Assembly (NCBI RefSeq): GCF_006345805.1
Contig: NC_043016.1
Coordinates: forward strand, 30,566,001-30,630,000
Direction: 5' to 3'
Source: Octopus sinensis
Taxonomy: Eukaryota
Length of the DNA: 64,000 nt
Below are positions 6,975-59,382 of the stretch, in pieces (the stretch's first letter is position 1; every line of letters begins with the position of its first letter). The position numbers and the translations under genes are program-made. The notes beneath the pieces were generated by a model. The model was not told the origin of the DNA and made no database searches. It worked only from the letters and a program-made list of their open reading frames with translations.

Positions 6975-8279
6975 ACCCACCACACACGGTAAAGTGATTG
7001 GCATTAGAAAGGGTATCTAGCCAGAGAAACCAGGCCAAATCAGACTGGAACCTAGTGCAGCTCTCCAGCTTGCCAGCTCTAGCACTCAGCACACACTATA
7101 AAGTGGTTGGCACTAGGAAGGGCATCCAGCTGTAGAAACCAAGCCAAATCAGACTGGAACCTGGTGCAGCTCTCCAGCTTGCCACCTCTAGCACTCAGCA
7201 CACACTATAAAGTGGTTGGCACTAGGAAGGGCATCCAGCTGTAGAAACCAAGCCAAATCAGACTGGAACCTAGTGCAGCTCTCCAGCTTGCCACCTCTAG
7301 CACTCAGCACACACTATAAAGTGGTTGGCACTAGGAAGGGTATCTAGCCAGAGAAACCAAGCCAAATCAGACTGGAACCATGTGCAGCTCTCCAGCTTGC
7401 CACCTCTAGCACTCAGTACACACTATAAAGTGGTTGGCACTAGGAAGGGCATCCAGCTGCAGAAACCAAGCCAAATCAGACTGGAACCTAGTGCAGCTCT
7501 CCAGCTTGCCACCTCTAGCACTCAGTACACACTATAAAGTGGTTGGCACTAGGAAGGGCATCCAGCTGCAGAAACCAAGCCAAATCAGACTGGAACCTAG
7601 TGCAGCTCTCCAGCTTGCCACCTCTAGCACTCAGTACACACTATAAAGTGGTTGGCACTAGGAAGGGCATCCAGCTGTAGAAACCAAGCCAAATCAGACT
7701 GGAACTTGGTGCAGCTCTCCAGCTTGCCACCTCTAGCACTCAGCACACACTATAAAGTGGTTGGCACTAGGAAGGGCATCCAGCTGTAGAAACCAAGCCA
7801 AATCAGACTGGAACTTGGTGCAGCTCTCCAGCTTGCCACCTCTAGCACTCAGTACACACTATAAAGTGGTTGGCACTAGGAAGGGCATCCAGCTGTAGAA
7901 ACCAAGCCAAATCAGACTGGAACCTGGTGCAGCTCTCCAGCTTACCACCTCTAGCACTCAGTACACACTATAAAGTGGTTGGCACTAGGAAGGGCATCCA
8001 GCTGTAGAAACCAAGCCAAATCAGACTGGAACCTTGTGCAGCTCTCAACCTTGCCACCTCTAGCACTCAGCACACACTATAAAGTGGTTGGCACTAGGAA
8101 GGGCATCCAGCTGTAGAAACCAAACCAAATCAGATTGGAACCTGGTGCAGCTCTCAACCTTGCCAGCTCTAGCACTCAGTACACACTATAAAGTGGTTGG
8201 CACTAGGAAGGGCATCCAGCTGTAGAAACCAAGCCAAATCAGACTGGAACCTGGTGCAGCTCTCCAGCTTGCCAGCTCT
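6975..8279 (+). repeat. Tandem array of a 109-bp unit (~12 copies) inside a family-B SINE (whole element ~6865-8347)
   Basis: gcactcag junction recurs every 109 bp from 7082 to 8172; SINE tail and (GAT)n follow at 8280-8347. Confidence 0.97.
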
Positions 8280-9758
8280 GGTCATACCATCCAACCGATG
8301 TCATTGTGGAAAATGGACGTTAAAGGATGAAATGATGATGATGATGAGTATTTCAAATTGTTAAGCAGAAGTAGTCTTTTGCCTTTCTGATGGTATATCA
8401 TTGCAGTTTGATGTTATAATCATGGAACATAAATACCTATAAATAAATGAAGAAAATAAAGAAAAATAATTCAAAAGTGGTTTAATGTGCAACTCAACAA
8501 TTTTTTTTTTGTTTGTACTTGAATTACTTTGTAGCTCATCTTCATATTTTTTTTCTTTATTGTAATAAACAGGTCACACCAAATATATTTTACATATGTG
8601 ATTTGTACTAATTTAAATGTTAGTAACAGAAAATATATTTTAGTACTTTCACAACATGTAAAAACAATCAGCTAATACTTGTATTAAATTACTTTTTCCT
8701 AATTTGAATAACAGTGATCACCAAATATATCTGAGGTGTTTAGAATCATATTGATTTGTAAACAGTGATCTGGTAATTGATTAACAAAAAAGTTGCTGCT
8801 GTAAATAAGACAAAAATGAACACTTATGTATTTTTGCAACATAAATAATAATATTGAAATAAAATAATTACAACAATATAAATATAATTTCATTTAAAAA
8901 CACCACCATTCAACATAGAATTAATTCCTTTTTGTCAGATCATTTAATCAATGTACATTTTCATATTTTTACTTTGTAAAACTCAAAATAAAACTAAAAT
9001 TGTGAATTTACTAAGGGATTGATATTTTATGACAAATAATATATTTTGTAATATACATTATGTGCATGTGAATGAGTTTGTATGTGTAGTGTATTTGTGA
9101 TTGTGTTGTATTTGTGATTGTGTTTGTATATGTGTGGGTATGTGAGATTTAAAATTAAAAGATAAAGAAAACCATAGGAGAATAATAAAACATAGTTAAT
9201 CACAGGTATGTATCAAAGGAACAGTTTCCTCAAAATAAATAAATAAAAATCAATTCAGGTAAAAATAATACTCCTCTAAGAACAGATTTTTATGCAACAT
9301 TAAAATCTAAAATGGTATAATTTTTCTTTGAAATATAAACATAATATGCTTACATTGTCATTACATATATATATATATATATTAAACAATCCTTAGAATA
9401 GTGTATTTCTATTTTTAAAATGAAAATAGATCATGTTAAAAAAAATAGAAGCATTTCTTTTGTTTCATAAGAAACAGCTTGTATAGAGAGCAAAGTAACA
9501 TACCCAGAGGAAAAACCATTTTTGTAAAATATTATGAAAATTCTAATATCAAATATGAATAATTACCTGAATTTATTCAAGTATTGTAAAGTTTAGCAAT
9601 AATGATATATATATATATATATTATATATATATATAAAATGGATCTACAAATGCAATATCCCTACATATCTCACATCTATTTTCTTTTATTTTCTCCACC
9701 TCACTCTCTGTTTTATATCTTATCTAAATTAACTATTTCTTAACCATCCTTTCACACC

Positions 9759-9806
9759 GTCTCTGATGAAGGGATATAATAAATATCCTGGAAACAGCTG
9801 TAAGAC
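9759..9806 (+). ncRNA. Minimal type I hammerhead ribozyme motif in a Penelope-like remnant (9637-9868)
   Basis: GUCU-CUGAUGA-AG-GGAUAU(aauaa)AUAUCC-UG-GAAAC-AGCU-GUA-AGAC: core boxes, stems I and II, palindromic ACAGCUGU stem III. Confidence 0.7.
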
Positions 9807-9863
9807 CTATCTATAAATGTTCTATAATCTACACACCCTTGGTTTTTTATCTCATTACAAAAT

Positions 9864-9914
<51 letters not shown>

Positions 9915-10695
9915 TGTATGTATGTATACATCATATATACATATATGTCAGCATACATACATATATACATGCATACATATAAACATATGTATTTTGAAGA
10001 GATAACTGTAAGTATAGTAATTGCATTTATTATTGAAGTTTCCTAAAACTTGACAATTTTCTTAATTTTTGATAGATGCAAGAAAAATTGGAGATTCTAA
10101 AACCATGATTTATCCAATATTTTGAATAATAAATTACCAGGACTTTAATTCTGAAATTCAATTTAGCCATATTTTGAATTTGTTGCAATTAGTATCAAGG
10201 ATTTACTGGAAAATCAATTAAAAATTATTACTTCTTAAACAAGGAACATTAAAAACTAGCTACATGTTAGAAAAAGTCTTCATATCGCAGTGACTTTAAT
10301 TTTTACATTAGATGTATAGTGGACATCAGAGCATGTCTGTAGCCATAGTTTCAAGATTTGCCAAGTTCAAGAAAGAGATAGTGATTCAAGAAGTTTTAGC
10401 AACCTTTTGTATATCTCTCTTACATTTTGGATATAGCATTGTCTATTGAATTTAGCACTGAGGTTAAACATTTGAATATGTTTCTCTAAGTTTCCAAAGA
10501 ACCTTTAACTCAACTCTAAATATAGATACACACACACACGCATATATGTATATATATATATAATATATATATCACTGTGATCACTGTGACTGACCAGGCT
10601 ATCAGATGCTGCTACACATCGCTGGTCACAATGCGCTTCGCATTATTTTAGCCTTCAAATGACACCACCCCGCTGGCTAAGTGAGCAGGCCAATA

Positions 10696-10742
<47 letters not shown>

Positions 10743-11759
10743 AATGCATGTAAATATACATACACATACACACACACACAGAGAGGAATGCATGCAAATA
10801 TACAAACATACATGTGTATGTATGCATATATATATACGTATGTGTGTGTGTATCTGAGTGGCATGATGTGATGGTAACCAATTTCTGTTTTCTTGATGGT
10901 TGAAACTCAATATGGTTTTGATTCCTTTGTCTTTAGTGCCAAAATTTTGACATTACCATCACAATGTAGAGATGAAGTTGCTTCACCAGCTTAACACAAA
11001 GTCAGCTGCTTTGATCAAGAATGATTATGTGATCATGAGTGCAACACCCTAATCACTAGGTCACAATAACTTCACATAAAGGAGAGTTAAGCTTATTTAA
11101 ACTTAACTCGCAGTCTAAGAGGAACTAAATCTCTTGCTTTGCTGAAAAGTAGGTTCTTATAATCTTGTGACATGTTTCTATATCAGCGGCAATGATTTGT
11201 ATCTGCTATGCTTTATGGGGATCCCTTGTGAATTACGGACTTGGATAGCATCATGATTTGCATCACTTTATACAGTATATTGCCGCCATGTCATTTCTTA
11301 GATTACCGAACAAAAATTTCACAGGGACAGCAACACTGCCACATATAATCACGGAATCATTAAAATGGTGTTGACCTGAAGGTCAGCAACTCCTGACCAA
11401 CACACACACACACACACACATACATGCACATTATTTAGCAGCAAAGTTTCTTTACCACTTGCAAAATTTGAAATGCACAATTATTTTTTTTTAATGTAAC
11501 CTTGAAGACATGTAATATACTCAAAAGACGTGCTAATATGGCATTAGAAAACCATATTTTGCATCAAGTGATTTAATAGGATCTTCTTTTTAATTCTATA
11601 CAACCATGTCAACACATTATGGGTCTCAAAGGTAACAAGTCTTCTTTTTTTTTAATTTGTAACATAAAAATATATAGCAATTAGTTTGAAATAATTTGTA
11701 TGTATCTGTATGTACATTGGGTATGAATACATGACACACATTAATATTATATACACAAA

Positions 11760-11810
11760 TATATATGTAAATGTATATATATATATATTATATATATAAT
11801 ATTATAATAT

Positions 11811-11843
<33 letters not shown>

Positions 11844-11970
11844 TTATGCATGTATGTATGTATGTATGTATAATATATAATATAATATATAATATATATA
11901 TATATATATAATTTATATATATAATATATATCTATATATATATATATATATAATTATATTATATATATAG

Positions 11971-12014
<44 letters not shown>

Positions 12015-12110
12015 ATATATAATATTTATATATATATATTTATATATAGATATATATATATATATATATAATATATATTATATATATATTTATATATATA
12101 TATATTAATC

Positions 12111-12144
<34 letters not shown>

Positions 12145-12155
12145 GTATATGTATA
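11760..12155. repeat. Long degenerate (TA)n tract
   Basis: Read directly from the sequence. Confidence 0.95.
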
Positions 12156-12522
12156 TAAATTAGAGAAGAACTACCTTTTATCAATTCAACAATGAAATAA
12201 CAATGATATAATTAAATTATACCATATAGAAAAAAATTAAATATACGATAAAACATATACCAATAATTAAGTAAAGTACAAAATAATAATAAAAAGTATA
12301 TAACAGTATATATACTGTTATCAGTTTGAAAATATAGCCACGACACACGTGTAGTCTTTTTACCAATTATATACTTTTTATTATTATTTTGTACTTTACT
12401 TAATTATTGGTATATGTTTTTTCGTATATTTAATTTTTTCTATATGGTAATTTAATTATATCATTGTTGTTTCATTGTTGATTGATAAAAGGTAGTTCTT
12501 CTCTAATTTATATACATATATT
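12147..12522. repeat. Long inverted repeat (arms ~12147-12303 and ~12368-12522) between (TA)n tracts
   Basis: aaattagagaagaactaccttttatcaa...aaaaagtatataa is mirrored by ttatatacttttt...ttgataaaaggtagttcttctctaattt. Confidence 0.92.
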
Positions 12523-12597
12523 ATATATTGAAAATTTGATTTAGTATTACTAATTGAATTTTTCCCTGTAAGTTTGGAATAATATTCCCCAATATTA

Positions 12598-12631
<34 letters not shown>

Positions 12632-13199
12632 TATATATCTGTATACCAACATTATATGCATATATACATACATCATGTATGTAAATTCTAAACACACAGA
12701 CATATATGAAGGTATTTCTAATAAATTAAGAGAGAACATACAGCTCTAACAACAGAAGAATCTCAGTTTCAACCTAGCAAGGTTTCATCAGCAGTCAGAA
12801 CATGCATGTTTTCTCAGTTAGTATCCAGAATAAATCTTCAGTGTTGTAGATTAATTAAATTGTGTATGAAGAGAATTTTGCATCAGAAAACAAGGCTGAT
12901 CAGGAGAGAAGAATCATAGAGTATTCATTATTTTTGTAAGAAAGTATTTCTAATCTTGCTTCAAAACAATTTTTGGATTATAGTCCCAAAGTACAAATAT
13001 GAAGTTTTAAAAACAGGAACATGATGGTTAAAGTCTAGTTGTCTCTCATCAACCATCAGAACAAATTTATGTACTCTTTGGTTTATTTCATGATTTTTCT
13101 ATATATACTGAGTTACACATACATTGCAGTATAAACATATATGTGCATATCAGGTATGTACATATTCATATGTTCACACACACACACACTCACATACAT

Positions 13200-13545
13200 C
13201 TTTTATCTTTTATTCATTTCAATCATTTGACTGTGGCCATGCTGTGATGATTAAATCTTGAAAGATTTAATCAATCCAGCATTTACTTTTCTTTTTAAGC
13301 CTAGTACTCATCCTATTGGTTTCTTTTGCTGAATTACTAAGTTAAGGGACAAAAACAAACCAACACCATTTGTCATGTGGTGATGGGGGACAAAAACCCA
13401 AACACACATACTTACACATTTATTTGCAAAACCACTGACAAGGCTTTGGTTGGCCAGTGGCTATAGTAGAAGATACTTGCTCAAAGTGCCTTGCAGTGGG
13501 ACTGAACCAGGGACTATGTGGTTGGAAAACAAGCTCATTTACCAC
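13200..13545 (-). mobile_element. Decayed SINE family A copy
   Basis: Similar to the copy at 59952-60379. Confidence 0.75.
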
Positions 13546-13604
13546 ATATCCATCCATCCATCTATCTATCCTTGTATGTATGTATGTATGTGTGTATATA
13601 TATA

Positions 13605-13645
<41 letters not shown>

Positions 13646-13838
13646 AAACAAAAAGTGCAATAGAGGACAATAAAACATTTAGATAGATAGATGATGCAAA
13701 GAGGGACAGGAGAAACAACAATTAGGACAGGAAAAAAAAAGGACATGTCGTTTGTGGCCTTCTTTCTTCAGTCAAGTTACCAGATGTCCTTATTGTTTCG
13801 GGCAATTACACTTGAATATATATATATGTATATATATG

Positions 13839-13879
<41 letters not shown>

Positions 13880-13985
13880 CATATATATATATATAAATAT
13901 ACTTCTCATATAAGGATAAGATTTTTTTTTTAAATTTATCAGTCGCCAGCGTATTAAAATATTTTTTAAGGTGAAAATTATAAAC

Positions 13986-14162
13986 AATTATAAATAAGGG
14001 CAAAAGAAAATAATTTTCTATGGCAATATGCTGAAAAATAGACCTTAGATTGTCTAACCACATACAATATTTTTAGGGAAAAATATTTTATGCGGTTAGA
14101 TGATCTAAAGTCTATTTTTCAGCATATTGGCATGGAAAAAACTTTTTTTGCAATTATTTATA

Positions 14163-14167
<5 letters not shown>
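13986..14167. repeat. Imperfect hairpin (arms ~13986-14073 and ~14081-14167) between (TA)n tracts
   Basis: caatatgctgaaaaatagaccttagattgtctaacc versus ggttagatgatctaaagtctatttttcagcatattg. Confidence 0.88.
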
Positions 14168-14200
<33 letters not shown>

Positions 14201-14234
14201 CACACATACATACATACATACATACATACATACA

Positions 14235-14268
<34 letters not shown>

Positions 14269-14800
14269 CATACATATAGCTGAAGGATGAAAATTAATCA
14301 AAGGACATACTAAGTATGTCTACCTGCTGGAAATAACAGTCAAAACTCTTATTTAAATCACCAAAATACACTGATAATAACTACAGAAATCAACTGTATG
14401 AAGGCAAACAGACCAAGACAATCTCTCAGCATACATTCAAATATTTGGACTCACATGGAGTGGTTTCTGGACTGGCATAATAGCCTAACCTTCCCCTGCA
14501 TGCATTATCATGATAGAGAGCCCCAACCTGTCATGTTGCGCTGCAACTGATATATATATATTATATATATATATGGTTAAATCTCTCCTGTAACTTGATA
14601 CATATGAGTATGACTGATTAACTGAACTGGTGCGTGAAGTGACTGGACAGTATACAGATACATGTACCTCTAGTGTAGTTCTCAGGCAGAATCAATGTGG
14701 CAAGCGTGACATGGGTGTGGACCTTTGAATTACAAGTACAGTCCACATTATTTACATTTCTTACATTCGATGAATATTTGTCCTTATCTTGTTTGTTGTT

Positions 14801-14846
14801 AACACAACGTTTCGGCTGATATACCCTCCAGCCTTCATCAGGTGTC
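14801..14846 (-). ncRNA. Minimal hammerhead ribozyme in a Penelope-like inverted terminal remnant (14742-14967)
   Basis: Minus strand reads GACAC-CUGAUGA-A-GGCUG(gaggguauau)CAGCC-GAAAC-GUU-GUGUU; stem III is reduced to the palindrome AACGUU. Confidence 0.78.
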
Positions 14847-15592
14847 TTGGGGAAATTTTGAACCTGGAAAATTTCCTCAAGACACCTGAACAACAAACAA
14901 GATGAGAACAAATATCTGTCAAATGTAAATAATGTACATAATTCCTCATCTCTTAAATATAGAACTATAAATACAATCCATTCGACAGGTATCTGTCTAC
15001 ACAGGCTTTGTTTTTCCCAAAAATCCACTCTCAAGGCTTAGGTCAACCCTGTGGTTAATGGTAGAGGCACGTGTTCAAGGTTTCGCACAAGGAGATCAAG
15101 CTTTGGTCTTCATGGCTGCAAACTGAATGTTTAACAACTTAGTCATGCCCATCTACACACACACACTCTCTCTCTCTCTCCCTCTCCCTCTTTTTTTTAT
15201 CTATCTCTTTTTCTCGTTCTCTCAGATAAATTTTCCAAAAATGCAATAGAACTTACCCAGTAAGAGTCACAATGTGCGTGTGTGTGTGTCTGGGAGGCTG
15301 GTGAGCATGCGTGCGTGTGTGTGCATGTGAGTGTGTGTGAACGTGTGTGTGTGTATGTGTGTGTGTGTTAAATAAGTATAAACACAAATTCATATTATAG
15401 TTCCTAAGCTCTTTAATATGAATTTGTGTTCATCCTTATTTCTCCAACATTTGCTCTGTAGCTCATAAACTGGTAATACTGTTCACTATAGAAGTTACTT
15501 AACAAACTAAACAGGAATCACACTGGATAATGATACTCTATGTGTAGCTCTAACCATAACAGTAGCAGTTGCACAATCTCTACTACATATAC

Positions 15593-15787
15593 AGAGTCCA
15601 TCAAAATAATGTATACACACTTCAGGAAAGAGAAAATCTGTATAAATATTTGACATGTATAAGTACCTCTAAAAATATAGATACCTCTTTTGATGTTTTA
15701 TCAAATTGTGATAACACTGAATAAATTGAAATAATACTGAATTAAAATATTCATATAGATTTTTGTTTTCCTGAAGTGTGTATACAT
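15593..15787. mobile_element. Tc1/mariner-type MITE remnant
   Basis: ta|cagagtccatcaaaataatgtatacacacttcaggaaa and the inverted tttcctgaagtgtgtatacat; the right end is lost in a microsatellite. Confidence 0.6.
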
Positions 15788-15796
15788 GTATGTATG

Positions 15797-15828
<32 letters not shown>

Positions 15829-16104
15829 AGGAAAATAGGACAAGGTAGAAAATGCTAAAAGAATTTCATCATGAAGAACATTTTAGTACTAGTTTCAGTC
15901 TTTGAGACTTTTTCAACTTAGGGTAAAGCATGAAAACAATTAGATTGTGGAAAAATTAAATGATATGTTTTTTTTAAAAATATTCCCATAGTTTTCAAAT
16001 AGATGGGACATTTTCCTTTTTCCTGTCTCTCTCTTTTTTTTACTTTTGTGAAGGCTTGGTAAGTAGGTAGGTAGGTAGGTAGTAGATCTGAAGAAATATG
16101 AGGG

Positions 16105-16520
16105 ATATGTATATATGTGTGTGTGTATTTATGTATGCACATATATATGTATGTATATATGTGTATATATATGTATATATGTATTCATATATATATGTAT
16201 ATATATATGTATGTATATGTATATATATATATGTATGTATATATATATATATATGTATTCATATATGTATATATATGCATGTATATGTACATATATGTAT
16301 GTATATGTATATATATGTATGTATATATATGTATGCATATGTATGTGTATAGTATATGTATATGTATGTATGTATGTATGTATATATATATTTATATATA
16401 TTTATATGTACGTAAATATATATATATATATATTATATATGTGTGTGTGTATGTATGTATGTATGTATGTATGTATGTATATATATATATATATATAAAT
16501 ATGTGCATATATGTGTATGT
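16105..16520. repeat. (TA)n/(TATG)n compound microsatellite
   Basis: Read directly from the sequence. Confidence 0.95.
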
Positions 16521-18308: not shown

Positions 18309-18529
18309 CCCTTTTGTTACTGTATTTATTTTGATATGCTCTGTGTTTCTTTCGATTACTTTAAATATAACAAAGAATTTAGTAAAATAATTTAGTTATC
18401 ATTCAGCTAGTGTTAGGAATATAAACTATGATTAAAGTTTGGTGAAAGATTTTAATTCAAAACTTATGAAAACAAGACATTTGTGCTACAGAGCCAGAGC
18501 CGGTTTCAGCCAGGTTGGCAATGAAAGGG
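18309..18529. mobile_element. piggyBac-type MITE (TTAA TSD), copy 1
   Basis: ttaa|cccttttgttac...gcaatgaaaggg|ttaa; closely similar to 61015-61234. Confidence 0.88.
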
Positions 18530-18991: not shown

Positions 18992-19040
<49 letters not shown>

Positions 19041-20044: not shown

Positions 20045-20077
<33 letters not shown>

Positions 20078-31357: not shown

Positions 31358-32182
31358 ATCATCATCAATGCCCCACTTTTCTGTGCCTACATGAGCTAGA
31401 GAGAATTCGTTGAGGTGGATTTTCTACAGCTGGTTGCCCTTCCTGTTGCCAACTGTCACTTGTTTCCATATAAGGAGATATTATCTCATCACCAGATATG
31501 TTTTCACCGAATATTGGAAACAAACGACACTGCTAGTATGATGGTGATACTTGTTTACAACTATCATGGAACATCAAAGCAACGGGACTGTAAAACACAC
31601 ACACACACACACACAAGGTATTGATCTGTCCAGGTTTATAGTAGAAGATACTTGCCTCAAGGTACCACACAGTTGGATTAAACCCAGAGTCATAAAGTTG
31701 AGAAGCAAATCTCTTACCCACAGACCTTCACCAGCACCAATCAAATATGGAAAATCATTCTGTGATTATTCAGCTAAAATCATAGACTTTTATGATTCCT
31801 AAGTGCTGTATTACAGTCAGCTACACATCCAGTTGACCAAGAGGAGCATATTTATATTGTTAAGGCACTGCAGTACTGTGCAATAATGTTAATGTAAAAT
31901 TGATATGAGCTCAAAACAAAAATGCATGCACAATAACTTTACGGTCTGCCATAAATTAACTGTGGGGTGTAATCACAACAAGAAATAGACTTTTGAGTGA
32001 TGCTTATAGTAATTCGAAGAGCTTAATTGTCTACAAGTGAAGATATTTCTGGTTTCTCCTTTTCATTTCTCTTCTACTATGCCTTGTTCCATTTCAATTT
32101 ATTACCTTGCATTTTGCATGCGCGCGTGTGTGTGTGTGCAGTAGAATATGGGGTGAGAATGTGTGCATATAATATACATACA

Positions 32183-48028: not shown

Positions 48029-48177
48029 TTCAAACCTTTGGTTATGAGGATCGGCAAAGCCTTCGTACAGGTGATATTTTCAACCATTGCATCAAATGCC
48101 TTTTCTACATCATTCCTGATGAATTCTTTGCTGACAGCCATCAAAGCTAATAAGCAACCAATAACTTTGTCTAATTC
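48029..48177 (-). CDS. TOGARAM1: TOGARAM1 exon: ELDKVIGCLLALMAVSKEFIRNDVEKAFDAMVENITCTKALPILITKGL(K)
   Basis: TTCAG/GTAAG boundaries, 149 nt; FIR.DV.KA..AMV motif. Confidence 0.93.
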
Positions 48178-48451
48178 CTGAAAAAATGTATGATCAAATA
48201 TTAAATTTAAATTCTTTTAAGACTAGCAATATTTGAATATCTCAAAAGGATTCAAATATATGAAATTTTGTTTTAAAAACGAAAATTGTGCATACGGGTC
48301 AATAGACCCATACATTTTCAAAATTTTAAAACAATTTATGAAAATATAGAATTCCACAAAAATGCCTGTTAAACCAATCCCTAAATTTTAATGATATATT
48401 ATAAGTTATCATAGTATGTTGTAAATAGTATCAGAAACAAATGGAACTCAC

Positions 48452-48538
48452 TGCATCCATTCTTCTCTTCAGATAGAGAAACATATCAGTAACACAAAGA
48501 ATAGCATCTCTTTTAACTTGAGACCTTAGGTTTTCCAA
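48452..48538 (-). CDS. TOGARAM1: TOGARAM1 exon: LENLRSQVKRDAILCVTDMFLYLKRRMDA
   Basis: CCAG/GTGAG boundaries, 87 nt; NLRS motif of CLASP/crescerin TOGs. Confidence 0.93.
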
Positions 48539-50759
48539 CTGGAAGCAGAAAAAAAACAAAATAAAAAAACAGATAAATAAATAAACAGATAAAGCCCCAC
48601 CCAAAAAATAATGAAGAAGGAAATATATTCAGAATCACAACTTTGAATGGGAAGTTATTTGCACAAATTCAAACCTGCAACCTACATAAAGTACTTCAGT
48701 GTTTTCTTTCAAATTGATTAAGGTTTTTGTATAATCAGGAAGCCGCAAATTAAAAAGAAGTTAAATGGAAAGTTACCGTGGACCTTCTTTGCTTTAACTA
48801 AAATACGGAACTGGATTACAAACTCAGCTTAATGGTATCCACATGTACATAACAAAATTTAGAATGATTTGACATTACTTTGATGTGAAATATGGAATTC
48901 ATTCATTTGTTTTACTGAATGCACGTTTTTTTTTTTTTTTTACAAAATTTGCATAGTACATACATACATTATATACACACGCATACACACACACATAATG
49001 ATGGTTGTCCACTCATGACCAAGGAAGACTGTCACTGAGCATTAAGAACACTGAGCACTCAGACAAATTTGTACTTTGCCCTAGTAGCTCAGCTAGTGAC
49101 TAATGAGTCCGACTATTGATAAACATCCACATCCACAGATACTGCAGATCAAGCTTCCCCCATTCACCACACTGGCAGTGCATTTTCAAGCCACTCATTT
49201 AAATTCTGCATGTAGAATGCATGCTTTTAAAATTACACATCTATTCCTTTATTTTTCTCTCCACTGCTGGTGATGACAAGCATTACTTTCTTTCCCTATT
49301 GACCACCCATATTTCACATGCCTTCAATGAAGACTTTACACAGTCCTTGACTGGTCCTTGTGAACTGCCAGCATGAAAGTCTTGAGGGGAGCCAATGTCC
49401 TGAGCATTGAGGTGATGGTGCTTAAGCACTGGTTACATTGGACTGGATACCTTGCTTAGATGAATGATTGGAGCATCCCTAAGCTGATGTTATATTATAT
49501 GGTAAAGTTGCTTGTGGTAAATATGCTTCCAACAGGAACCAAGACTATATGCATGCTGGACTCTCCTGTCTAACTAACAGATTAAGGGTCAGCAATTTCT
49601 TGCTGAACAACCTGCAAATTTGATTTGTTTATAGTGATCAAAAGCTTGAGCTGTACATTAGCTCAGTTCCTCCATCAAGTCAACATTGCCTGCATAGGTG
49701 CATGGTGTGCCACATGTCAGATGTTGAGGTGGTCACAGAGCCATGTGAGATGAAGCGCTTTACTCAAGAATGCAAGTTTGTCTGGTCTGTGAATTGAAAT
49801 CAAGATCTTGGGACCACAAGTGCAATACCTTAATTATTAAGCCATGTACCCCCCACCTCACACACAAACACATGCATGCAGACATACATATCTATATCTG
49901 TTTAGGTTAAACAACTTCAAGTATACTATCTGAAAGTATTATATTTTAATAATACCTTCAGATAGTCAAGGAATTCTTCACATTTCAACACAAAGGTCAT
50001 ATCATATATGTTGAAGAGTTTACTGGCCAGCATAGATGATTATAGATACTAGTTTTGTAATACTCATTAATTTATAACACCTATAAATTAATAACTATTT
50101 TAAAGGTATTACTTTTATGGGTATATATTTTTACAGGCATTGTTTTTATAAGACCTATTTTGTAAGTAATGTATGTTTTTATGCAAACTTTTGTTAACAA
50201 ACAAATATATGAAATTACTAACTGTTAAACCATAATAAATTATCCATTATAAAATATTCAATGAAAAACAATTGATATTTTTCATGAAAATACAACTTGC
50301 ACCGTAATTTTGAAAGTCTGAAGGAAATGAAAATGGAGATGGAAATTACTGGAAAGTAAAAAAGATTTTTTCAAAAATATTATGAAAATGACATGAACTG
50401 TATGAATTCACATGTGAACAACATATGAGAAAAGTTGTTTTTTCTCTTGGGCTTCAAACAGTGAAAGTTTTTCATTGAATGATTTGACAAGTATGAAAAG
50501 ATTTTGGATCAAATTGTTTTCTGGACTAGATTGAAGTTCATAAAATGTAGTTTAGGTTGGTCAAAATTAACAGAACGGTCAACGTGTCAACAGTTTGTAG
50601 TGACCTTTAGATAACCAGGTGAAGTGTTTAGTCAACCAAGTGGTCATTTACCACTAGTTTATTTGACCAAAGTAACTCCCAGCCTTATACTGGCTATATA
50701 AAGTAGAATTCAAAATCTGCATTTTCTGTTTCCTTCAGAAACATGCTGGCAGTAAACTA

Positions 50760-51019
50760 CAGTAATTCCTTGACTATCACAGGAATTACATTCCAAAACC
50801 CCCGCAATAGATGAAAATCCATGAAGCAGAAACTGTACTGTACTGCATTTTTTTTATTTCTTTATAATTTGTATATATTTATTTTATTATAAATGCAAAA
50901 CAACACCACGGAGGAATCTACATAAGCTTAAATAATAAACCATGATTGGTGAACCATGACAGGTGAACCGTGACAGGTGAACCGTGATAGGTGAACCATG
51001 ATATTGTAAGGGATTACTG
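50760..51019. mobile_element. Tigger-like MITE with a subterminal 14-bp tandem (ggtgaaccgtgaca)
   Basis: cagtaattcct...agggattactg termini. Confidence 0.6.
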
Positions 51020-51269
51020 AGTAGAGCTCAGCACAATCTTCCGGCTCTCCAGCTTCTGCCAAATTGTCCATCCTATGCCAACATGGAAAACATATGTTAA
51101 ACAACAAGAACAATGATGATAATGACAACGGTGATGATGATAGTAATGATGATGATGATGTTGATGAGAGCACTGATGATGATGATGATGATGATGATGA
51201 GGATGATGATGTTGATGAGGATATTGATGATGATGATGATGATGATGATCTCTAGTCAATGAATAATGC

Positions 51270-51308
<39 letters not shown>

Positions 51309-52687
51309 GCTCCAATGATTAATGTGTGTGTTTGATATGAGGTGGGATATTGTGCAACAGTAAGATGGCTACTGATGTTGAGAAGGTAGGGTGGTGACAG
51401 ACAACCAAAACTGGAAGTATATCTGAGAGAATTTAGATTAGAGGAAACTGCACTGACACCAGTTGCAATGGAACAATCTGATGAGAAACTTTCAACCCAA
51501 GAAAAGAATGAACAATGGAATTCACAGGTTGATGACTTTGCCAGGAGGTATAGTCTAAAGGTTTATTTTTTTTGTGACCCTAAAATTTAGTAAATTTATA
51601 ATACATTCATAATTTTTTTTTTATTGAAAGCATTTTTCAAGGAGTTTTATCTTTTTGATTCTACATGTGGAAGTTTATCTCAGATTCCTTTGATTTTTAT
51701 ATTTAGCTTCAAGCCAGATTGCACAACATTCATGTCTCTCCTTCAAATTTTGTCATTTTCATTTCCAGGTCTTCCACTTTTAGAAAAGCACTTGACTTCA
51801 TTTAGAAAGTCATATAAGTTAGCATGCAAAACAATCTAGATATACACAAGCTTTTAAGGAGTATAGAGTATGTGAATCTGAAAAAAGTCTTCGTAAATAA
51901 AATTGGATAGTTGGAAATTGTCTGGAAGCTTTGTGGGACACCCTGCCTTTGTAATTTGATAGCCAGACCTTGTTACACAGTGTCATATTGATTCTTCTTG
52001 AGGCTAAGTGTTTATACTACAACCATCTCTTTACACCATAATATGTAGGTCATTCTATTGTTTGAACAATTGAAACACTCATATGCTGAAGCCAGTGTGG
52101 GAACCATTTTTTATTCACCATTATCTCATACAGAGCAAAACTTGAAAGCTTCTGGGAGCTGACTGAAAGAGGTCAGCTGTTTCAATGGCATTCAATACTG
52201 GTCAACAAAGACAGCAGAAGATATTCTTTTGTAAAAAGGAGATCTTCATGACAGCATGAGTACAAAATAGTTTTAACCCTTTAACATATCAGGCCCAAAT
52301 ATTCTACCCATTTTATGTTAAAACTGGCCACATGCAAACTCTCACATCTACCCTACAATGTCATTCTTAAAATAAACAACATCATCATCAAAATCTAAAA
52401 TCTCAAAACTATAAGATAATGCATGATTAATTCAAATCAATGTAAATAAATAGGCATTATATTTGACAGGGTAATCTGAATACCAAAGGATTAAAGTTTT
52501 AGCAGCTTTGGGTACTGCTTGGAGTATGTGAAAATGAACAGCAACACTCAGTTTATAGAAAGTTGACAAGTTTATCGGAGCTGACAAGAATTTTGGACTG
52601 TTCAAAGCTAATGAATTTCCTTATATTTATAATTAGAGTGGTTGCTAAAAAGGTTGATACATTAGTTAAAAGCAGAATGTGACTAAA

Positions 52688-52921
52688 GGCGGTGAGCTGG
52701 CAGAAACGTTAGCATGCCGGGTGAAGTGCTTTGCAGTATTTCGTCTGCCATTACGTTCTGAGTTCATATTCTGCCAAGGTCGACTTTGCCTTTCATCCTT
52801 TTGGGTTTCGATAAATTAAGTACCAGTTACACACTGGGGTCGATGTAATCGACTTAATCACTTTGCCTGTCCTTGTTTCTCCCCCTCTATGTTTAGCCCC
52901 TTGTGGGCAATAAAGAAATAA
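52688..52921 (+). mobile_element. SINE family D with TSD
   Basis: agaatgtgac occurs just before (52674-52683) and after (52921-52930) the copy. Confidence 0.85.
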
Positions 52922-53190
52922 GAATGTGACAAAGCTGCTCCTTCTGCATCACGGGTTGCAACTTATTTTTGCCGGCTGAGTGGACTGGAGCAACGTGAAA
53001 TAAAGTGTCTTGCTCAAGGACACAGCACACTGCCGGGAACTGAAGTTCTGACCTTATGACCACGAACCAAATACCCTAACCACTAAGCTATGCACCTACC
53101 CCACTTGCAAAATAGAAAACTAATAAAATTTGCAAACATAAATTTCACTGTAGTTAAATTTAATTGAAGAAAATAAAAAAATATAAACAC

Positions 53191-53296
53191 CTCTTTGGTT
53201 ATTAACATCATCAACGGATGGAAACCAGAATCGAAAGCACTCGGGCATTGTTTGCACAGCTGTCTTGTTGAATTAAGAGCTTCACATTTTATTTTC
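53191..53296 (-). CDS. TOGARAM1: TOGARAM1 exon (TOG3 HEAT A): (W)KIKCEALNSTRQLCKQCPSAFDSGFHPLMMLITKE
   Basis: TTTCAG/GT boundaries, 106 nt; completes the TG|G Trp codon from the upstream exon. Confidence 0.88.
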
Positions 53297-53709
53297 CTGA
53301 AAAATAAAACAAGATTTCTTAGAGTTATGCATTCTTTGTCCAATAGAGTAAGAAAGAAGCAGTGTCTGTCTTCTTATGTATTTATGAATAACTCTCATTG
53401 CATAAAATATTGCCATGTATATATAAGCATCATCGTCGTCATCATCATCGTTTAACGTCCGCTTTCAATGCTAGCATGGGTTGGATGGTTTGACTAAGGG
53501 CTGGCAAGCCAGAAGGCTGTACCAGGCTCCAATCTGATCTGGCAAGGTTTCTTCAGCTGGATACCCTTCCTACGCCAACCACAGGAGCCAGTCAGGTGGC
53601 ACTGGCAATGACCACACTTGAATGGTGCTTTTTACATGTCACCACCATAGGTACCACTCAGGTGGAACTGGCATTGGCCATGACAATAACATCACTTGAC
53701 TCAACAGTT

Positions 53710-53766
<57 letters not shown>

Positions 53767-53990
53767 GGAAAGAGAGAGAGAGAAAGAGAGAGAGAGAGAT
53801 ACATACACACACATATATGTGCATATACATATATATATATATATTGATAAAAAAATGGTAAGACAACAAAAGAAAGAAAGAGACCTCGATATTATGTAAA
53901 AAGAGGAATTTATCTGTAAATGTAATATGTGACATCAGAAACTTGGAGTTTTATCATGGCTACTGAATAATTGTCACACATTACATTTAC

Positions 53991-54072
<82 letters not shown>

Positions 54073-54133
54073 CCACACACACATACATACACACACACAC
54101 ATATATATATATATACATACGTATGCATATATG

Positions 54134-54165
<32 letters not shown>

Positions 54166-54471
54166 TATAAACATATATATATACATGCACCACACACATA
54201 CATACATACATACATATATATATATATACATATACACTCACACACACACAAACACACATGCCAAGTGAAATCATAGTCGTGACCGATGGCAGTGGTTATG
54301 TAACTGGTACTCAGCACATGAAAGGCACCCACTACACTCTTGGCACCCAGCTGTAGAAGCCATGCCAAATCAGCTCGAAACCTGGTGCAGCTCCCCAGCT
54401 TACCAGTTTTCAGCCAGACTGTCCAACCCATGCCAGCATGGAAAACAGATGTTAAATGATGATGATACATA

Positions 54472-54875
54472 TACTCTTTACTCTTTTACTCTTTTACTTG
54501 TTTCAGTCATTTGACTGCGGCCATGCTGGAGCACCACCTTTAATCGAGCAACTCGACCCTAGGACGTATTCTTTTGTAAGTCCAGTACTTATTCTATCGG
54601 TCTCTTTTGCCGAACCGTTAAGTAACATAAACACACCAGCATCGTGTATATATAGGGGGACAAACACAGACACACAAACACACACACGCATATATATACA
54701 TATACACATATACGACGGGCTTCTTTCAGTTTCCGTCTACCAAATCCACTCACAAGGCTTTGGTCGGCCCGAGGCTATAGTAGAAGACACTTGCCCAAGG
54801 TGCCATGCGGTGGGACTGAACCTGGAACCATGTGGTTGGTAAACAAGCTACTTACCACACAGCCACTCCTGCGCC
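54472..54875 (-). mobile_element. SINE family A copy
   Basis: Reverse complement of 22687-23090. Confidence 0.9.
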
Positions 54876-55355
54876 TATAAATATATAATTCAAATAAGAA
54901 GACAAAGCAAGAATTTAGTACATCTTTAATGACCAGTTACAATTGTTTCTCTGTTTTTTTAATGTCATTGCATTAAAATTTTTAATGTCCTTCCAGGAAA
55001 AAGATTATGTAATATTTATGGATTTAAATTCTGGCATGGTACTTCATGAAACTAGCATCAGAGGTACACTTTTACATTGTGCACAATGTAAGAGCACACG
55101 TTCCTAACACCAACCACTTTACAGAGAGTACTGGATGCTCTTTATGTTGCACCAGCGCTGGCAGTGTTATCAAGTATCTTGCAAGGGAAGACCCCTGCTC
55201 TCAATGGATGAGGGGAGGAGCAGTATTGGGGAAGGTGGATTTGTGCCAGGTGATGATAAGTTAGAACATGAGAAGAGGGACAAAAATAGGTGTCTTATAT
55301 TAAAGGAGATACATGGGTACCGCAGTAAGAGAATGAGAAGGGGGAGAGAGGAGAG

Positions 55356-55401
<46 letters not shown>

Positions 55402-55517
55402 GGTGAAGATGTGATGGTGGTGGTGGTGTTGGTGGTGGATGTAGGCTCATGTTACAAGAAGATAGGAAACCCTATAAAGGGAGGGTCACCGATGCTACCC
55501 TTCCTCCACTAATGAAG

Positions 55518-55965
55518 CATCATCATCATCATCATCATCATCATTTAACGTCTGCTTTCCATGCTAGCATGGGTTGGACGGTTCAACTGGGGTCTGGGGA
55601 GCCCGAAAGCTGCACCAGTCCAGTCAATCTGGCAGTGTTTCTACAGCTGGATGCCCTTCCTAACGCCAACCACTCCGAGAGTGTAGTGGGTGATTTTATG
55701 TGCCACTGACACAGGTGCCAGACGAGGCTGGCAAACGGCCACGCTCGGATGGTGTTTTTTATGTGCCACCGACACAGGTGCCAGACGAGGCTGGCAGACG
55801 GCCACGCTCAGATGGTGTTTTTTATGTGCCACCGACACAGGTGCCAGACGAGGCCGGCCCGCTCGGATGGTGTTTTTTATGTGCCACCGACACAGGTGCC
55901 AGACGAGGCTGGCAGACGGCCACGATCGGATGGTGCTTGTTACGTGCCCACAGCACGGAGGCCAA
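55518..55965 (-). mobile_element. SINE family B with an internal 54-bp tandem (about 4-5 units, 55695-55950)
   Basis: (cat)n tail, Meta-like domain, repeated ttttatgtgccaccgacacaggtgccagacgaggctggcagacggccacgctcggatggtg. Confidence 0.88.
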
Positions 55966-56889
55966 GAATAAAATACATGTCTTTGTCCCTATAAAAGAAT
56001 TAGGATTAGCAGAGGAGAACAGAGTAAACTAATCTGCTTTTAATCTATTAATAATTATTAATCCATTTTAAAAGAACAGAGTACATCATCATTCATCATA
56101 ATCATGATCCTCCTCGTCGTCGTCGTCGTCATCGTCGTCGTCGTCATCACCATCACCATCACCATCACCACCACCACCACCACCACTGCTACCGCTGCCA
56201 CTGCCGCTGCTGTCGCCGCCGCCACCACTACCACCACCATCACCACCACCACCACCACCATCATCATCGTTGTCGTTTTAATATCGTTTTAATTTCCTTG
56301 TATGCAATGAGTCAGACAAAGTTTATTGAGGTGGATCTTCAATGGTTGGATGCCATTCCTGTCACTTACTGTCACTTGTTTTCATGCAAGGTAATATTTC
56401 CTTATGGAAATATGCTTTTGCAGAATATCAGAAATGAACGAATATCCATTTACAACAATCACATGATGTCAAGACAAGGAGACACAAATATACCCGTACA
56501 CACATATGTATGTACATACATACATACATAGGCATACGTACATACACATACGATGGGCTTCTGTCAGTAGTTTCCATGTGCCAAGTCCACTCTTGAGGCT
56601 TTGGTCAACATGAGACTATAATAGAAGACACCTGTCCAATGTGTCAAGCAGTGTGACAACTATGTTGGCGGGTGGAAGGCAAACTTAATTGCACGTTCAC
56701 ATCTCAACCTAAGAAAAATAAACAAGAATAAATAGGGAGTGGAGAAAATAAAGTTTTCTCTGATTTCATTTCCTTTACTTTCATTGATATTAAATTTTTT
56801 GCACATCATCCACATCATCATCATCATCATCATCAACATTTGGCATTTGTTTTCCATGCTGGCATGGGTTGCATTTTTTGACTGGAATT

Positions 56890-59382
56890 GGCAAGCTGGA
56901 GAGCTGCACCAGGTTCCAATCTGATTTGGCTTGGTTTCTACAGCTGGATGCCCTTCCTAGTGCCAACCACTTTATAGTGTGTACTGAGTGCTAGAGCAGG
57001 CAAGCTGGAGAGCTGCACCAGGTTCCAGTCTGATTTGGCTTGGTTTCTACAGCTGGATGCCCTTCCTAGTGCCAACCACTTTATAGTGTGTGCTGAGTGC
57101 TAGAGCTGGCAAGGTTGAGAGCTGCACCAGGTTCCAATCTGATTTGGCTTGGTTTCTACAGCTGGATGCCCTTCCTAATGTCAACCACTTTATAGTGTGT
57201 GCTGAGTGCTAGAGCAGGCAAGCTGGAGAGCTGCACCAGGTTCCAGTCTTATTTGGCTTGGTTTCTACAGCTGGATGCCCTTCCTAGTGCCAACCACTTT
57301 ATAGTGTGTGCTGAGTGCCAGAGCTGGCAAGGTTGAGAGCTGCACCAGGTTCCAATCTGATTTGGTTTGGTTTCTACAGCTGGATGCCCTTCCTAGTGCC
57401 AACCACTTTATAGTGTGTGCTGAGTGCCAGAGCTGGCAAGGTTGAGAGCTGCACCAGGTTCCAATCTGATTTGGCTTGGTTTCTACAGCTGGATGCCCTT
57501 CCTAGTGCCAACCACTTTATAGTGTGTACTGAGTGCTAGAGCAGGCAAGCTGGAGAGCTGCACCAGGTTCCAGTCTTATTTGGCTTGGTTTCTACAGCTG
57601 GATGCCCTTCCTAGTGCCAACCACTTTATAGTGTGTGCTGAGTGCCAGAGCTGGCAAGGTTGAGAGCTGCACCAGGTTCCAATCTGATTTGGTTTGGTTT
57701 CTACAGCTGGATGCCCTTCCTAGTGCCAACCACTTTATAGTGTGTACTGAGTGCTAGAGGTGGCAAGCTGGAGAGCTGCACCAGGTTCCAGTCTGATTTG
57801 GTTTGGTTTTCTACACAGCTGGATGCCCTTCCTAGTGCCAACCACTTTATAGTGTGCTGAGTGCTAGAGCTGGCAAGGTTGAGAGCTGCACCAGGTTCCA
57901 ATCTGATTTGGTTTGGTTTCTACAGCTGGATGCCCTTCCTAGTGCCAACCACTTTATAGTGTGTGCTGAGTGCTAGAGCTGGCAAGGTTGAGAGCTGCAC
58001 CAGGTTCCAATCTGATTTGGCTTGGTTTCTACAGCTGGATGCCCTTCCTAGTGCCAACTACTTTATAGTGTGTACTGAGTGCTAGAGGTGGCAAGCTGGA
58101 GAGCTGCACCAGGTTCCAGTCTGATTTGGTTTGGTTTCTACAGCTGGATGCCCTTCCTAGTGCCAACCACTTTATAGTGTGTACTGAGTGCTAGAGGTGG
58201 CAAGCTGGAGAGCTGCACCAGGTTCCAATCTGATTTGGCTTGGTTTCTACGGCTGGATGCCCTTCCTAGTGCCAACTACTTTATAGTGTGTACTGAGTGC
58301 TAGAGGTGGCAAGCTGGAGAGCTGCACCAGGTTCCAATCTGATTTGGCTTGGTTTCTACAGCTGGATGCCCTTCCTAGTGCCAACTACTTTATAGTGTGT
58401 ACTGAGTGCTAGAGGTGGCAAGCTGGAGAGCTGCACCAGGTTCCAATCTGATTTGGCTTGGTTTCTACAGCTGGATGCCCTTCCTAGTGCCAACTACTTT
58501 ATAGTGTGTACTGAGTGCTAGAGGTGGCAAGCTGGAGAGCTGCACCAGGTTCCAATCTGATTTGGCTTGGTTTCTACAGCTGGATGCCCTTCCTAGTGCC
58601 AACTACTTTATAGTGTGTACTGAGTGCTAGAGGTGGCAAGCTGGAGAGCTGCACCAGGTTCCAGTCTGATTTGGTTTGGTTTCTACAGCTGGATGCCCTT
58701 CCTAATGCCAACCACTTTATAGTGTGTGCTGAGTGCTAGAGCTGGCAAGCTGGAGAGCTGCACCAGGTTCCAATCTGATTTGGCTTGGTTTCTACGGCTG
58801 GATGCCCTTCCTAATGCCAACCACTTTATAGTGTGTACTGAGTGCTAGAGGTGGCAAGCTGGAGAGCTGCACCAGGTTCCAGTCTCATTTGGCTTGGTTT
58901 CTACAGCTGGATGCCCTTCCTAGTGCCAACCACTTTATAGTGTGTGCTGAGTGCTAGAGCTGGCAAGGTTGAGAGCTGCACAAGGTTCCAGTCTGATTTG
59001 GTTTGGTTTCTGCAGCTGGATGCCCTTCCTAGTGCCAACCACTTTATAGTGTGTGCTGAGTGCTAGAGGTGGCAAGCTGGAGAGCTGCACCAGGTTCCAG
59101 TCTGATTTGGCTTGGTTTCTACAGCTGGATGCCCTTCCTAATGCCAACCACTTTATAGTGTGTGCTGAGTGCTAGAGGTGGCATGATGGAGAGCTGCACC
59201 AGGTTCCAATCTGATTTGGCTTGGTTTCTACAGCTGGATGCCCTTCCTAGTGCCAACCACTTTATAGTGTGTGCTGAGTGCTAGAGGTGGCAAGCTGGAG
59301 AGCTGCACCAGGTTCCAGTCTGATTTGGCTTGGTTTCTACAGCTGGATGCCCTTCCTAGTGCCAACCACTTTACAGTGTGTG
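56890..59382 (-). repeat. Tandem array of the same 109-bp unit (~23 copies), inverted relative to 6975-8279, inside a family-B SINE (~56812-59480)
   Basis: Unit is the reverse complement of the 7-kb array unit; (cat)n tail at 56812-56835. Confidence 0.97.

Follow-up and report, generated by a model that had tools for sequence, protein, structure and literature searches.

A 109-bp segment from the 3' untranslated region (UTR) of a LINE has probably spread among ten differing copies of the element by out-of-register ectopic gene conversion, homology-guided repair of DNA likely carrying it from copy to copy without the help of a protein encoded by the unit. Two of the resulting tandem arrays, A and B, lie in the window (the whole 64,000-nucleotide stretch analysed), which is free of gaps. 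The relevant features are as follows.

6535..6863, plus strand: separate monomer without the junction, belonging to a younger subfamily and immediately preceding host A
6864..6972, plus strand: 5' part of host A, a 5'-truncated copy; sequence from the 3' UTR of an older LINE subfamily
6973-8280, plus strand: array A (TRF 6972-8279, period 109, 12.0 copies)
6973..7081, plus strand: first unit of array A, with host letters to about unit position 61, then array letters
7077..7103 (C20:30573077-30573103), plus strand: first copy of the shared junction, where the 3' part of the LINE-UTR segment is rejoined to its own 5' part
7082..8280, plus strand: internal part of array A, 10 internal units and the last unit, with 11 junctions spaced exactly 109 bp apart
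8281..8348, plus strand: 3' tail of host A, in register with the last unit and ending in (GAT)n
31421-31453 (minus strand), about 53430-53680 (minus) and 54342-54466 (plus): further monomers
55520..55960, minus strand: monomer of the same LINE 3' end, an un-invaded target
56804..56882, minus strand: 3' tail of host B, ending in (GAT)n
56883..59390, minus strand: array B, 23 units and 22 junctions (TRF 56889-59383, period 109, 22.9 copies)
within 56883..59390, minus strand: first unit of array B, with the host-to-array switch between unit positions 17 and 32
59391..59500, minus strand: 5' part of host B, likewise from the 3' UTR of the older LINE subfamily

An earlier note on this DNA had described one 109-bp unit, one junction and a set of unit variants common to A and B, which was confirmed by TRF, sequence reading and counts; its estimates of about 12 units in A (plus strand) and 23 in B (minus strand) agreed with TRF. 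The junction 18-mer occurred 8 times in A, 11 times in B and nowhere else in the window, and the monomers of the window indeed lacked the junction, as had been stated. The variant CTCTCAACCTTGCC was counted twice in A, seven times in B and not in the rest of the window, and CAGATTGG once, 13 times and twice, respectively; both the CAGT and the CAGC forms were present in each array. Internal units of A and B differed by 5.0% on average, some being identical, while the host tails differed in 17 of 46 aligned columns (16 of 45 in the pairwise comparison) and the host heads in 23 of 95, in agreement with the claim that the arrays are more alike than their hosts. The 5' part of host A aligned with monomers L059, L055, L043 and L044 at 67-73%, and that of host B with L044, L043, L059, L055 and L040 at 73-78%.

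The hosts had been taken for SINEs, and this label proved wrong. They are 3' ends of 5'-truncated LINEs (non-LTR retrotransposons), longer copies of which enter a reverse-transcriptase (RT) ORF. The copy L103 carried a Pfam RVT_1 match (E=3e-15) and a PHD finger upstream of the UTR, and the longest copies of the host family ran into a broken RT ORF. The ORF C-terminus was matched by tblastn at hosts 29.90 and 30.85 (loci are named by their position in Mb on the scaffold C20) and in 5 of 20 parent-type monomers, and the upstream sequence of L043 and L055 continued into it. The 5' ends differed among hosts, indicating variable 5' truncation, and (GAT)n tails were found at eight of the ten, 32.01 and 32.20 being cut short. 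No tRNA-like Rfam match was detected in window positions 6300-8500 or in L140, L142 and L144, and the search for target-site duplications around the hosts returned only low-complexity or chance-level matches. There may also be a separate SINE with the same tail. Judged by C-terminal motifs, the host LINE is presumably RTE-like. The available part of the description of RTE-2_OV gives it a microsatellite 3' UTR and a C2H2 finger (PMC9115989), and that UTR does not match the one found here.

The genome search for the junction that the note had proposed returned 138 exact matches in the 2.72-Gb assembly (2,719 Mb), all of them within 11 places. A shorter junction pattern again gave 138 matches, equal to the 138 in these places, and the reversed control pattern gave none, so that the matches are not due to chance. 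As the flanks of C4:87.0 duplicated those of C20:32.20 (98.6% over 2894 bp, 4 mismatches, with an N gap 2.8 kb away), the 11 places represent ten independent loci. These lie at 29.27-32.58 Mb of C20, five on each strand, within 3.3 Mb at the distal end and in the last 3.7 Mb of a 32.98-Mb scaffold. In contrast to the arrays, the parent subfamily is dispersed, as 123 of 261 core 30-mer matches fell outside the arrays, the matches listed being on C1-C10. All 83 genome matches of a junction-free 32-mer of the array haplotype were inside the arrays. With the haplotype in no monomeric subfamily and the hosts in several, the alternative of an ordinary subfamily raised in the note was not borne out.

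No segmental duplication between the loci was detected, their flanks sharing only dispersed repeats shorter than 450 bp. No junction-like copy with up to 6 mismatches was found in 399 kb of distal C20 or in 200 kb of control DNA. A search for converted monomers near the arrays found both A17 and C32 in one of 82, and none was less than 12% from a unit. An explanation of the region as a gene cluster was rejected, since 34 of 175 open frames scanned yielded only LINE pieces, one HEAT/TOG frame and one trefoil frame.

Separate trees of units and flanks were incongruent, as the note had anticipated. The 19 sampled units formed a single clade (support 99/90) in 100% of bootstrap trees. In the flank tree, built on about 120 columns from the ten host flanks together with 82 of the 114 monomers, the label changed 7 times and a single clade of host flanks was rejected (p-AU 2.3e-14). 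The hosts belong to at least four subfamilies; six of the ten were in the parent subfamily clade and four in others, partly much younger, host 32.58 being placed in the youngest. Concordance between the 5' and 3' parts of the hosts was modest (p=0.034). Units were 4.9% apart between loci and 4.0% within, as compared with 24.7% among parent monomers, and the host tails were on average about 31% apart (30.6%; 36 pairs, with truncated 32.20 left out). Twenty-eight of 53 variants were common to several loci and 25 were private to one, and derived unit letters were near fixation (T5 in 123 of 123 units, A17 in 118 and C32 in 116). Judged from these sequence comparisons, units forming one clade while their hosts do not support the interpretation that the unit would have spread into pre-existing, diverged copies. 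Within the 3.3 Mb, array similarity showed no decay with distance (Mantel r=0.12, p=0.25; nine loci), the span of rare variants was not significant (p=0.26; nine loci), and no long donor block was found between arrays, the longest exact match being 199 bp.

All ten arrays stood in register between the 5' and 3' parts of their hosts. The unit derives from the interior of the element, the end units run on into the element ends, and the switches from host to array and back fall inside shared homology at points that vary by locus. At five of the ten loci, including the 5-unit array at 31.32, unit positions 33-87 held no foreign letter in either end unit, although letters seen twice in arrays were treated as not foreign, a rule that can hide host letters copied inward; among 94 unselected monomers none had fewer than two foreign letters there (median 8). 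At 32.58, three subfamily-diagnostic host letters were absent from both end units. The host's own middle thus appears to have been replaced at five loci, an outcome that later homogenisation of end units could also produce. The end units at 29.27, 29.90, 30.85 and A also fit one crossover point, the outcome expected of circle integration. At 32.20 the unit order was the same in both assembled versions.

Empty orthologous sites were sought in relatives, and none was seen. At 30.85, four runs of short contigs gave no contig bridging the array, and the repeat family swamped the joint tables. In run X12 (organism C), contigs entered the tail (L034:3472-4036) and the head (4582-5050) of host 30.85, indicating that this host predates the split from organism C. 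Searches with the flanks of A and 32.58 (two of the ten loci) revealed no second haplotype, the matches being to the locus itself or to dispersed repeats.

Further junction families were found in the genome: besides the 109-bp family on C20, families of 140 and 101 bp on C29 and of 79 and 65 bp on C18, those on C29 (5.5-7.7 of 17.1 Mb) and C18 being internal in their scaffolds. The 140-bp family showed the same local pattern, with nine loci within 2.2 Mb (C29 5.46-7.66 Mb), many of which were mere dimers. At five of these nine the letter directly after the junction was T, against C in the first copy, which is the host's own; this T was present in none of 36 unselected monomers. Copies of the 140-bp junction on C22 and C3130 were not accepted as replicates, as they look independent, at microhomology. 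The core is often found duplicated in tandem (541 spaced-core matches), and a 100-bp internal-dimer type occurs on many contigs.

Gene conversion would proceed from one founding duplication, for which 29.90 is the candidate locus. A break in a nearby monomer would be repaired by invasion of an array unit; copying would cross one or more junctions before re-annealing to the other end of the monomer (synthesis-dependent strand annealing). In this way the monomer would acquire units, sometimes at the cost of its own middle. The array could afterwards be lengthened by unequal exchange, continued exchange could shuffle variants, some picked up from hosts, and physical proximity would limit the range to a few megabases. 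This reading is supported by hosts of several subfamilies and ages, switches within homology and mosaic arrays of many variants. The lack of distance decay and of a long donor block, the ends compatible with a single crossover at four loci and the absence of an observed empty site were counted against it. The earlier interpretation was therefore partly supported: homology-based spread into existing diverged copies stood, with gene conversion fitting best, but its rolling-circle route from one 109-nt circle did not. Even in short arrays almost every internal unit differs from the others (4 of 4, 3 of 3), and these arrays are themselves mosaics of variants common to several loci; on these grounds the single circle was rejected.

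The main rival, which we regard as unlikely, is that multi-unit extrachromosomal circles (eccDNA) looped from an array reintegrated by one homologous crossover, with end units homogenised later. In-register placement and mosaic arrays fit it, four loci allow a single crossover point, and the available text of two reports describes satellite eccDNA for Rsp-like (PMC7403614) and Tribolium satellites (PMC11610590). However, nothing obvious would keep a free circle within 3.3 of 2,719 Mb, and freely diffusing RNA or circles in general fit this restriction poorly; the host middle is missing at half of the loci, even at the short array 31.32, and the many C29 dimers are what a short conversion tract yields directly. 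The same confinement makes it improbable that cDNA of array transcripts, made by LINE machinery, recombined with homologous copies in a manner like retro-homing. The LINE whose 3' UTR supplied the unit does have an RT ORF, and young subfamilies exist, but RNA-borne copies are dispersed here (the parent subfamily and the 100-bp internal-dimer type), unlike the arrays, which also lack a common tail.

Independent duplication of the same segment in each host, with units equalised later by conversion between arrays, is disfavoured and quite improbable. The frequency of core duplication and the apparently independent C22 and C3130 copies speak for it, whereas the 109-bp junction has little microhomology, the period is identical at all loci, derived letters are near fixation and the junction is absent outside the region. 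We give hardly any credence to an array-bearing master element that retrotransposed long ago and whose flanks then diverged while its arrays were homogenised: six hosts do share the parent subfamily clade, but the other four, partly much younger, do not, one clade was rejected (p=2e-14, taking the flank tree as right), and no dispersed array copies exist. An assembly artefact, by collapsed or misplaced repeats or units homogenised in polishing, is just as improbable. Distal C20 does contain duplicated or misplaced contigs (C4:87.0 equals 32.20, and 29.71 equals 32.54) and no spanning long read was seen; against this, A and B lie in gap-free sequence, the flanks of the ten loci differ yet all meet their arrays in register, at switch points particular to each locus, 25 variants are private to a locus, and 32.20 kept its unit order in both versions.

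Homing introns, inteins and homing endonuclease genes insert into empty cognate sites through break repair that copies the filled allele. The C20 family has no encoded nuclease, no fixed cut site and ectopic rather than allelic targets, its unit being a non-coding UTR segment. A close likeness is to Drosophila Rsp-like, which spread into the 1.688 satellite; according to the accessible part of that 2020 report, a tandem repeat that is itself rare is found solely at sites already occupied by an abundant homologous one, phylogenies are discordant, and interlocus conversion and eccDNA are left as two routes (PMC7403614). Arrays only in pre-existing homologous repeats, with discordant phylogeny, were likewise found at all ten loci here. 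As described there, the Rsp-like target is another satellite, with a microhomology-made hybrid as vehicle, and empty syntenic sites and eccDNA were demonstrated; the C20 family targets dispersed retrotransposon copies 12-25% diverged, with the whole unit as homology and a range of about 3 Mb. In the squamate SINE-derived satellites sSat1-3 (Vassetzky et al. 2023), as far as the available text goes, units are cut from inside a retroposon, resemble one another across loci more than the element copies do (89% vs 64%) and tend to be subtelomeric (PMC10702118). The C20 unit is likewise internal and alike across loci, but it derives from a LINE 3' UTR and not a SINE, nearly every locus retains the two ends of the element, which is uncommon in sSats, and each junction family is regional; the portion of that paper available contains neither a host-versus-unit phylogeny nor invasion of existing copies.

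Sequence also moves by homology between pre-existing copies in non-allelic conversion of transposons, for instance when a young Alu replaces an old one; the process depends on distance and identity, with rates raised within 10 kb (PMC6598467), whereas neighbouring arrays on C20 are separated by 50 kb to 0.6 Mb at the nearest. That exchange is letter for letter, whereas here units would be added each time. Non-autonomous Helitron/Helentron-like elements carry satellite arrays as central repeats, and these too are short, lie within a mobile element and occur at numerous loci (available text of PMC11610590), but there the carrier moves with the array so that flanks co-segregate, which the C20 flanks do not, no non-repeat flanks being shared. 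A literature search covering few subscription papers found no account of regional LINE or SINE invasion by a tandem unit.

We tentatively suggest, at slightly below an even chance, that such families are protein-free 'homing minisatellites', in which a duplication arising anywhere within the tail of an abundant retrotransposon would act as a selfish element converting its neighbours by insertion-biased repair, each lineage within a few megabases. If so, the junctions would mark how far the ectopic search for homology extends in the germline and would capture the seeding of satellites along a chromosome. It is not settled how a tandem repeat at one locus comes to occupy many, and the available parts of the published cases do not decide between conversion and eccDNA (PMC7403614, PMC11610590). 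As each target is a dated, subfamily-typed retrotransposon copy, every insertion records its switch points, the lost host segment and a maximum age. Several independent junction lineages would serve as replicates, and the range of ectopic repair, its direction and the divergence that it tolerates (hosts at least 12% from the unit) would become directly testable. Retrotransposon copies could also not be treated as inert once inserted, which bears on the dating of subfamilies. We claim no function of the arrays for the host.

Two pairs of tandem copies, of 87 bp on C20 (29.71/32.54) and 96 bp on C27 (3.18/3.28), were set aside as duplications, since the flanks were common to both members. Other candidate pairs were noted at C27 13.56/13.66, C20 9.21/11.05 and C30 3.70/3.87.

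Tandem Repeats Finder detected two arrays in the window, which is free of assembly gaps and corresponds to C20:30566001-30630000 (C20 being contig NC_043016.1) of a 2.72-Gb assembly:

6972-8279: array A, 109-bp period, 12.0 copies
56889-59383: array B, 109-bp period, 22.9 copies

As the earlier note had stated, the two arrays have one junction and the same unit variants in common. The internal units of A and B showed a mean difference of 5.0%, and the repeat copies hosting them differed at 17 of 46 columns in the tails and 23 of 95 in the heads. The 109-bp array system is a real feature, an artefact being highly improbable. Two further features of the window were recorded:

1586-3388 (+): open frame of 601 codons, unbroken and matching RVT_1 and zf-RVT, a different LINE fragment
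62152-63105: TG-rich tandem repeat, 54 bp x 17.4, 91% matches

The hosts had been regarded as SINEs. When monomers, the array-free copies of the same element, were traced upstream, the longest entered coding sequence, and one stretch (L103) contained a broken ORF that matched Pfam RVT_1 (E=3e-15) and, in addition, a PHD finger. The C-terminus of the ORF was reached by the hosts at 29.90 and 30.85 (loci are named by Mb position on C20) and by five monomers of the parent type, that is, of the older subfamily from which the unit derives; the heads of A and B aligned to the UTR of these monomers. As Rfam also detected no tRNA-like head in the host-type sequences searched, a classical SINE identity was rejected: each host is what remains of a LINE copy after 5' truncation, its 3' end, finishing in a (GAT)n tail. 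Its motifs suggest that the LINE may be RTE-like. The portions of PMC9115989 and PMC5786205 consulted do not name the family. Younger subfamilies carried their own 55-63 bp UTR tandem repeats, variable in copy number and located upstream of the core, the UTR stretch used as search pattern (window 55694-55948; also L092, L093, L098 and L111).

The exact junction pattern gave 138 matches in the genome against 0 for a control pattern, and all 138 lay in the 11 places retrieved. A shorter, looser pattern again gave 138 in both, while mismatched copies were scanned for over 599 kb, beyond which any could escape the count. The place at C4:87.0 Mb, adjoining an N gap, was counted as the same locus as C20:32.20, the flanks being 98.6% identical over 2894 bp with 4 mismatches, leaving ten loci, five per strand and each of 3 to about 31 units, on a 32.98-Mb scaffold:

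C20 29.27, 29.90, 30.57 (A), 30.62 (B), 30.85, 31.32, 31.71, 32.01, 32.20 and 32.58 Mb

The C4:87.0 and C20:32.20 pair (L031 and L038) and L145 and L146 (C20:29.71 and C20:32.54) are near-identical stretches beside N gaps; in distal C20 they probably reflect duplication of haplotypes or during scaffolding. Two open frames were also present in that region, one of 557 codons that matched HEAT/TOG (L086:5686-7356, -) and one of 359 codons that matched trefoil (L115:3308-4384, +).

The probability of such clustering was about 6e-26 under uniform placement and, by simple arithmetic, about 6e-17 with targets confined to one tenth of the genome. The density of LINE tails was uneven (controls L120-L139), with 0 cores in the 100 kb sampled on the large contigs C5 and C12 and 1.2-3.0 per 10 kb on the small contigs C20, C21 and C24. 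The parent subfamily was dispersed, with 123 of 261 matches outside arrays; the array haplotype without the junction was found inside arrays in 83 of 83 matches. Each of its copies follows a junction, save the first unit of 29.90, the candidate founder locus. In 399 kb between arrays, no junction-like copy was found at 86 cores, and all 94 unselected monomers were at least 12% away from any unit. Extrapolation from these 399 kb gave about 700 targets in the interval, about 1.4% of them invaded.

The units and their hosts had different phylogenies. The 123 internal units were 4.9% apart between loci and 4.0% within, compared with 24.7% among 20 parent monomers; host tails were 30.6% apart, as much as random monomers (24.9%). 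In trees of few columns and unsettled bootstraps, the units formed one clade (19 sampled units, 106 of 114 monomers; support 99/90), and ten host flanks (82 of 114 monomers) required 7 label changes, a single clade being rejected (p-AU 2.3e-14). Six hosts belonged to the old parent subfamily and those at 29.27, 30.85, 31.71 and 32.58 to other clades, 32.58 falling in the youngest subfamily. The 5' and 3' flanks of one host agreed better than shuffled pairs (p=0.034). Because flanks of different loci have only dispersed repeats in common, the loci are not products of segmental duplication. With one unit clade in hosts of several clades, the proposal that the unit spread by homology into pre-existing copies proved largely right. 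At 30.85, contigs from run X12 of a relative (organism C) ran from unique flank into the host tail (34 of 565 letters differing) and head (20 of 469), so that this host is older than the split; no contig bridging the array was found among the runs compared there, X12 included.

Every one of the ten arrays opened with a unit passing from host to array and closed with one passing from array to host, in register, with switch points differing from locus to locus. At B, 31.32, 32.01, 32.20 and 32.58, both end units were free of foreign letters over unit positions 33-87, where 0 of 94 unselected monomers had fewer than two, and three subfamily-diagnostic letters of 32.58 were absent from both end units. 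The middle of these hosts was therefore apparently replaced, as gap repair predicts, and later homogenisation of end units could give the same result; for 29.27, 29.90, 30.85 and A, a single crossover point suffices. Among 53 unit variants, 28 were common to more than one locus, short arrays were made of distinct units, and host letters occurred inside internal units (A unit 4, 29.90 unit 9). These features rule out the suggested rolling-circle copying of one 109-nt circle and indicate that donors comprised several units or that exchange has continued.

Firmly established are the common junction, its confinement to one region, the discord between host and unit phylogenies, the in-register ends and the mosaic units. 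The scheme we favour, as moderately probable in its entirety, would start from one founding duplication; a break in a neighbouring monomer would be repaired on an array template with the second end captured out of register, the array would lengthen by unequal exchange, and proximity would limit the range. Neither isolation by distance inside the region (p=0.25, 0.26) nor exact matches between arrays longer than 199 bp were found, both of which count against a simple stepping-stone picture. Reintegration of multi-unit eccDNA is the less likely but serious alternative. Recombination mediated by cDNA seems improbable, and independent duplication of the segment with subsequent homogenisation slightly more so; an array-bearing master element is hardly credible with hosts in several clades. 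A 100-bp internal-dimer type was, by contrast, dispersed over many contigs among the matches listed, the pattern expected of retrotransposition.

Homing in the endonuclease sense does not apply to this spread. Transposon copies are known to convert one another letter for letter (PMC6598467, in part), and PMC11610590, as far as consulted, gives three accepted routes of satellite spread. From the parts available, the spread of Rsp-like into 1.688 clusters (PMC7403614) works in the same way and SINE-derived satellites (PMC10702118) have the same anatomy; the present case departs from them in its target, a dispersed LINE tail, in the retention of both ends and in the confinement of every lineage to a region. 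The literature searched contained no description of this pattern; the supplements of PMC10702118, outside that search, could bear on its novelty.

Searches with spaced cores found many more duplications of the host LINE UTR among the matches listed.

Other junction families (79-, 106-, 101- and 65-bp candidates drawn from L147-L150, L153-L157 and L068-L069, among the matches listed; the 101-, 79- and 106-bp loci are not genome-wide counts)
140/141 bp: C29 5.46-7.66 Mb, 9 loci (L060-L067, L140), also C22 and three unplaced contigs; 60 junction matches
101 bp: C29 10.52, 11.25, 13.17 Mb; flanks differ
79 bp: C18 12.82, 12.88, 14.49 Mb and C26; flanks differ
106 bp: C30 5.76, 8.63 Mb; flanks differ; up to 56 cores in L154
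65 bp: C18 31.73, 33.55 Mb

These families were defined by their junctions, with flanks compared for the 101-, 79- and 106-bp ones; two other locus pairs were rejected as plain duplications. The 140/141-bp family, with 2 to 38 units per C29 locus, is a second regional family. At five C29 and two unplaced loci the letter following the junction was T, in place of the C found in the copy belonging to the host, and T occurred there in 0 of 36 unselected monomers. The C22 and C3130 copies look independent. Units of 100 and 40 bp from the host UTR were mixed at two loci 100 kb apart (L070-L071; C27 13.56, 13.66 Mb), and matches to a UTR unit of roughly 100 bp extended over more than 20 kb at C18:10.964-10.986 Mb, possibly a large satellite block.
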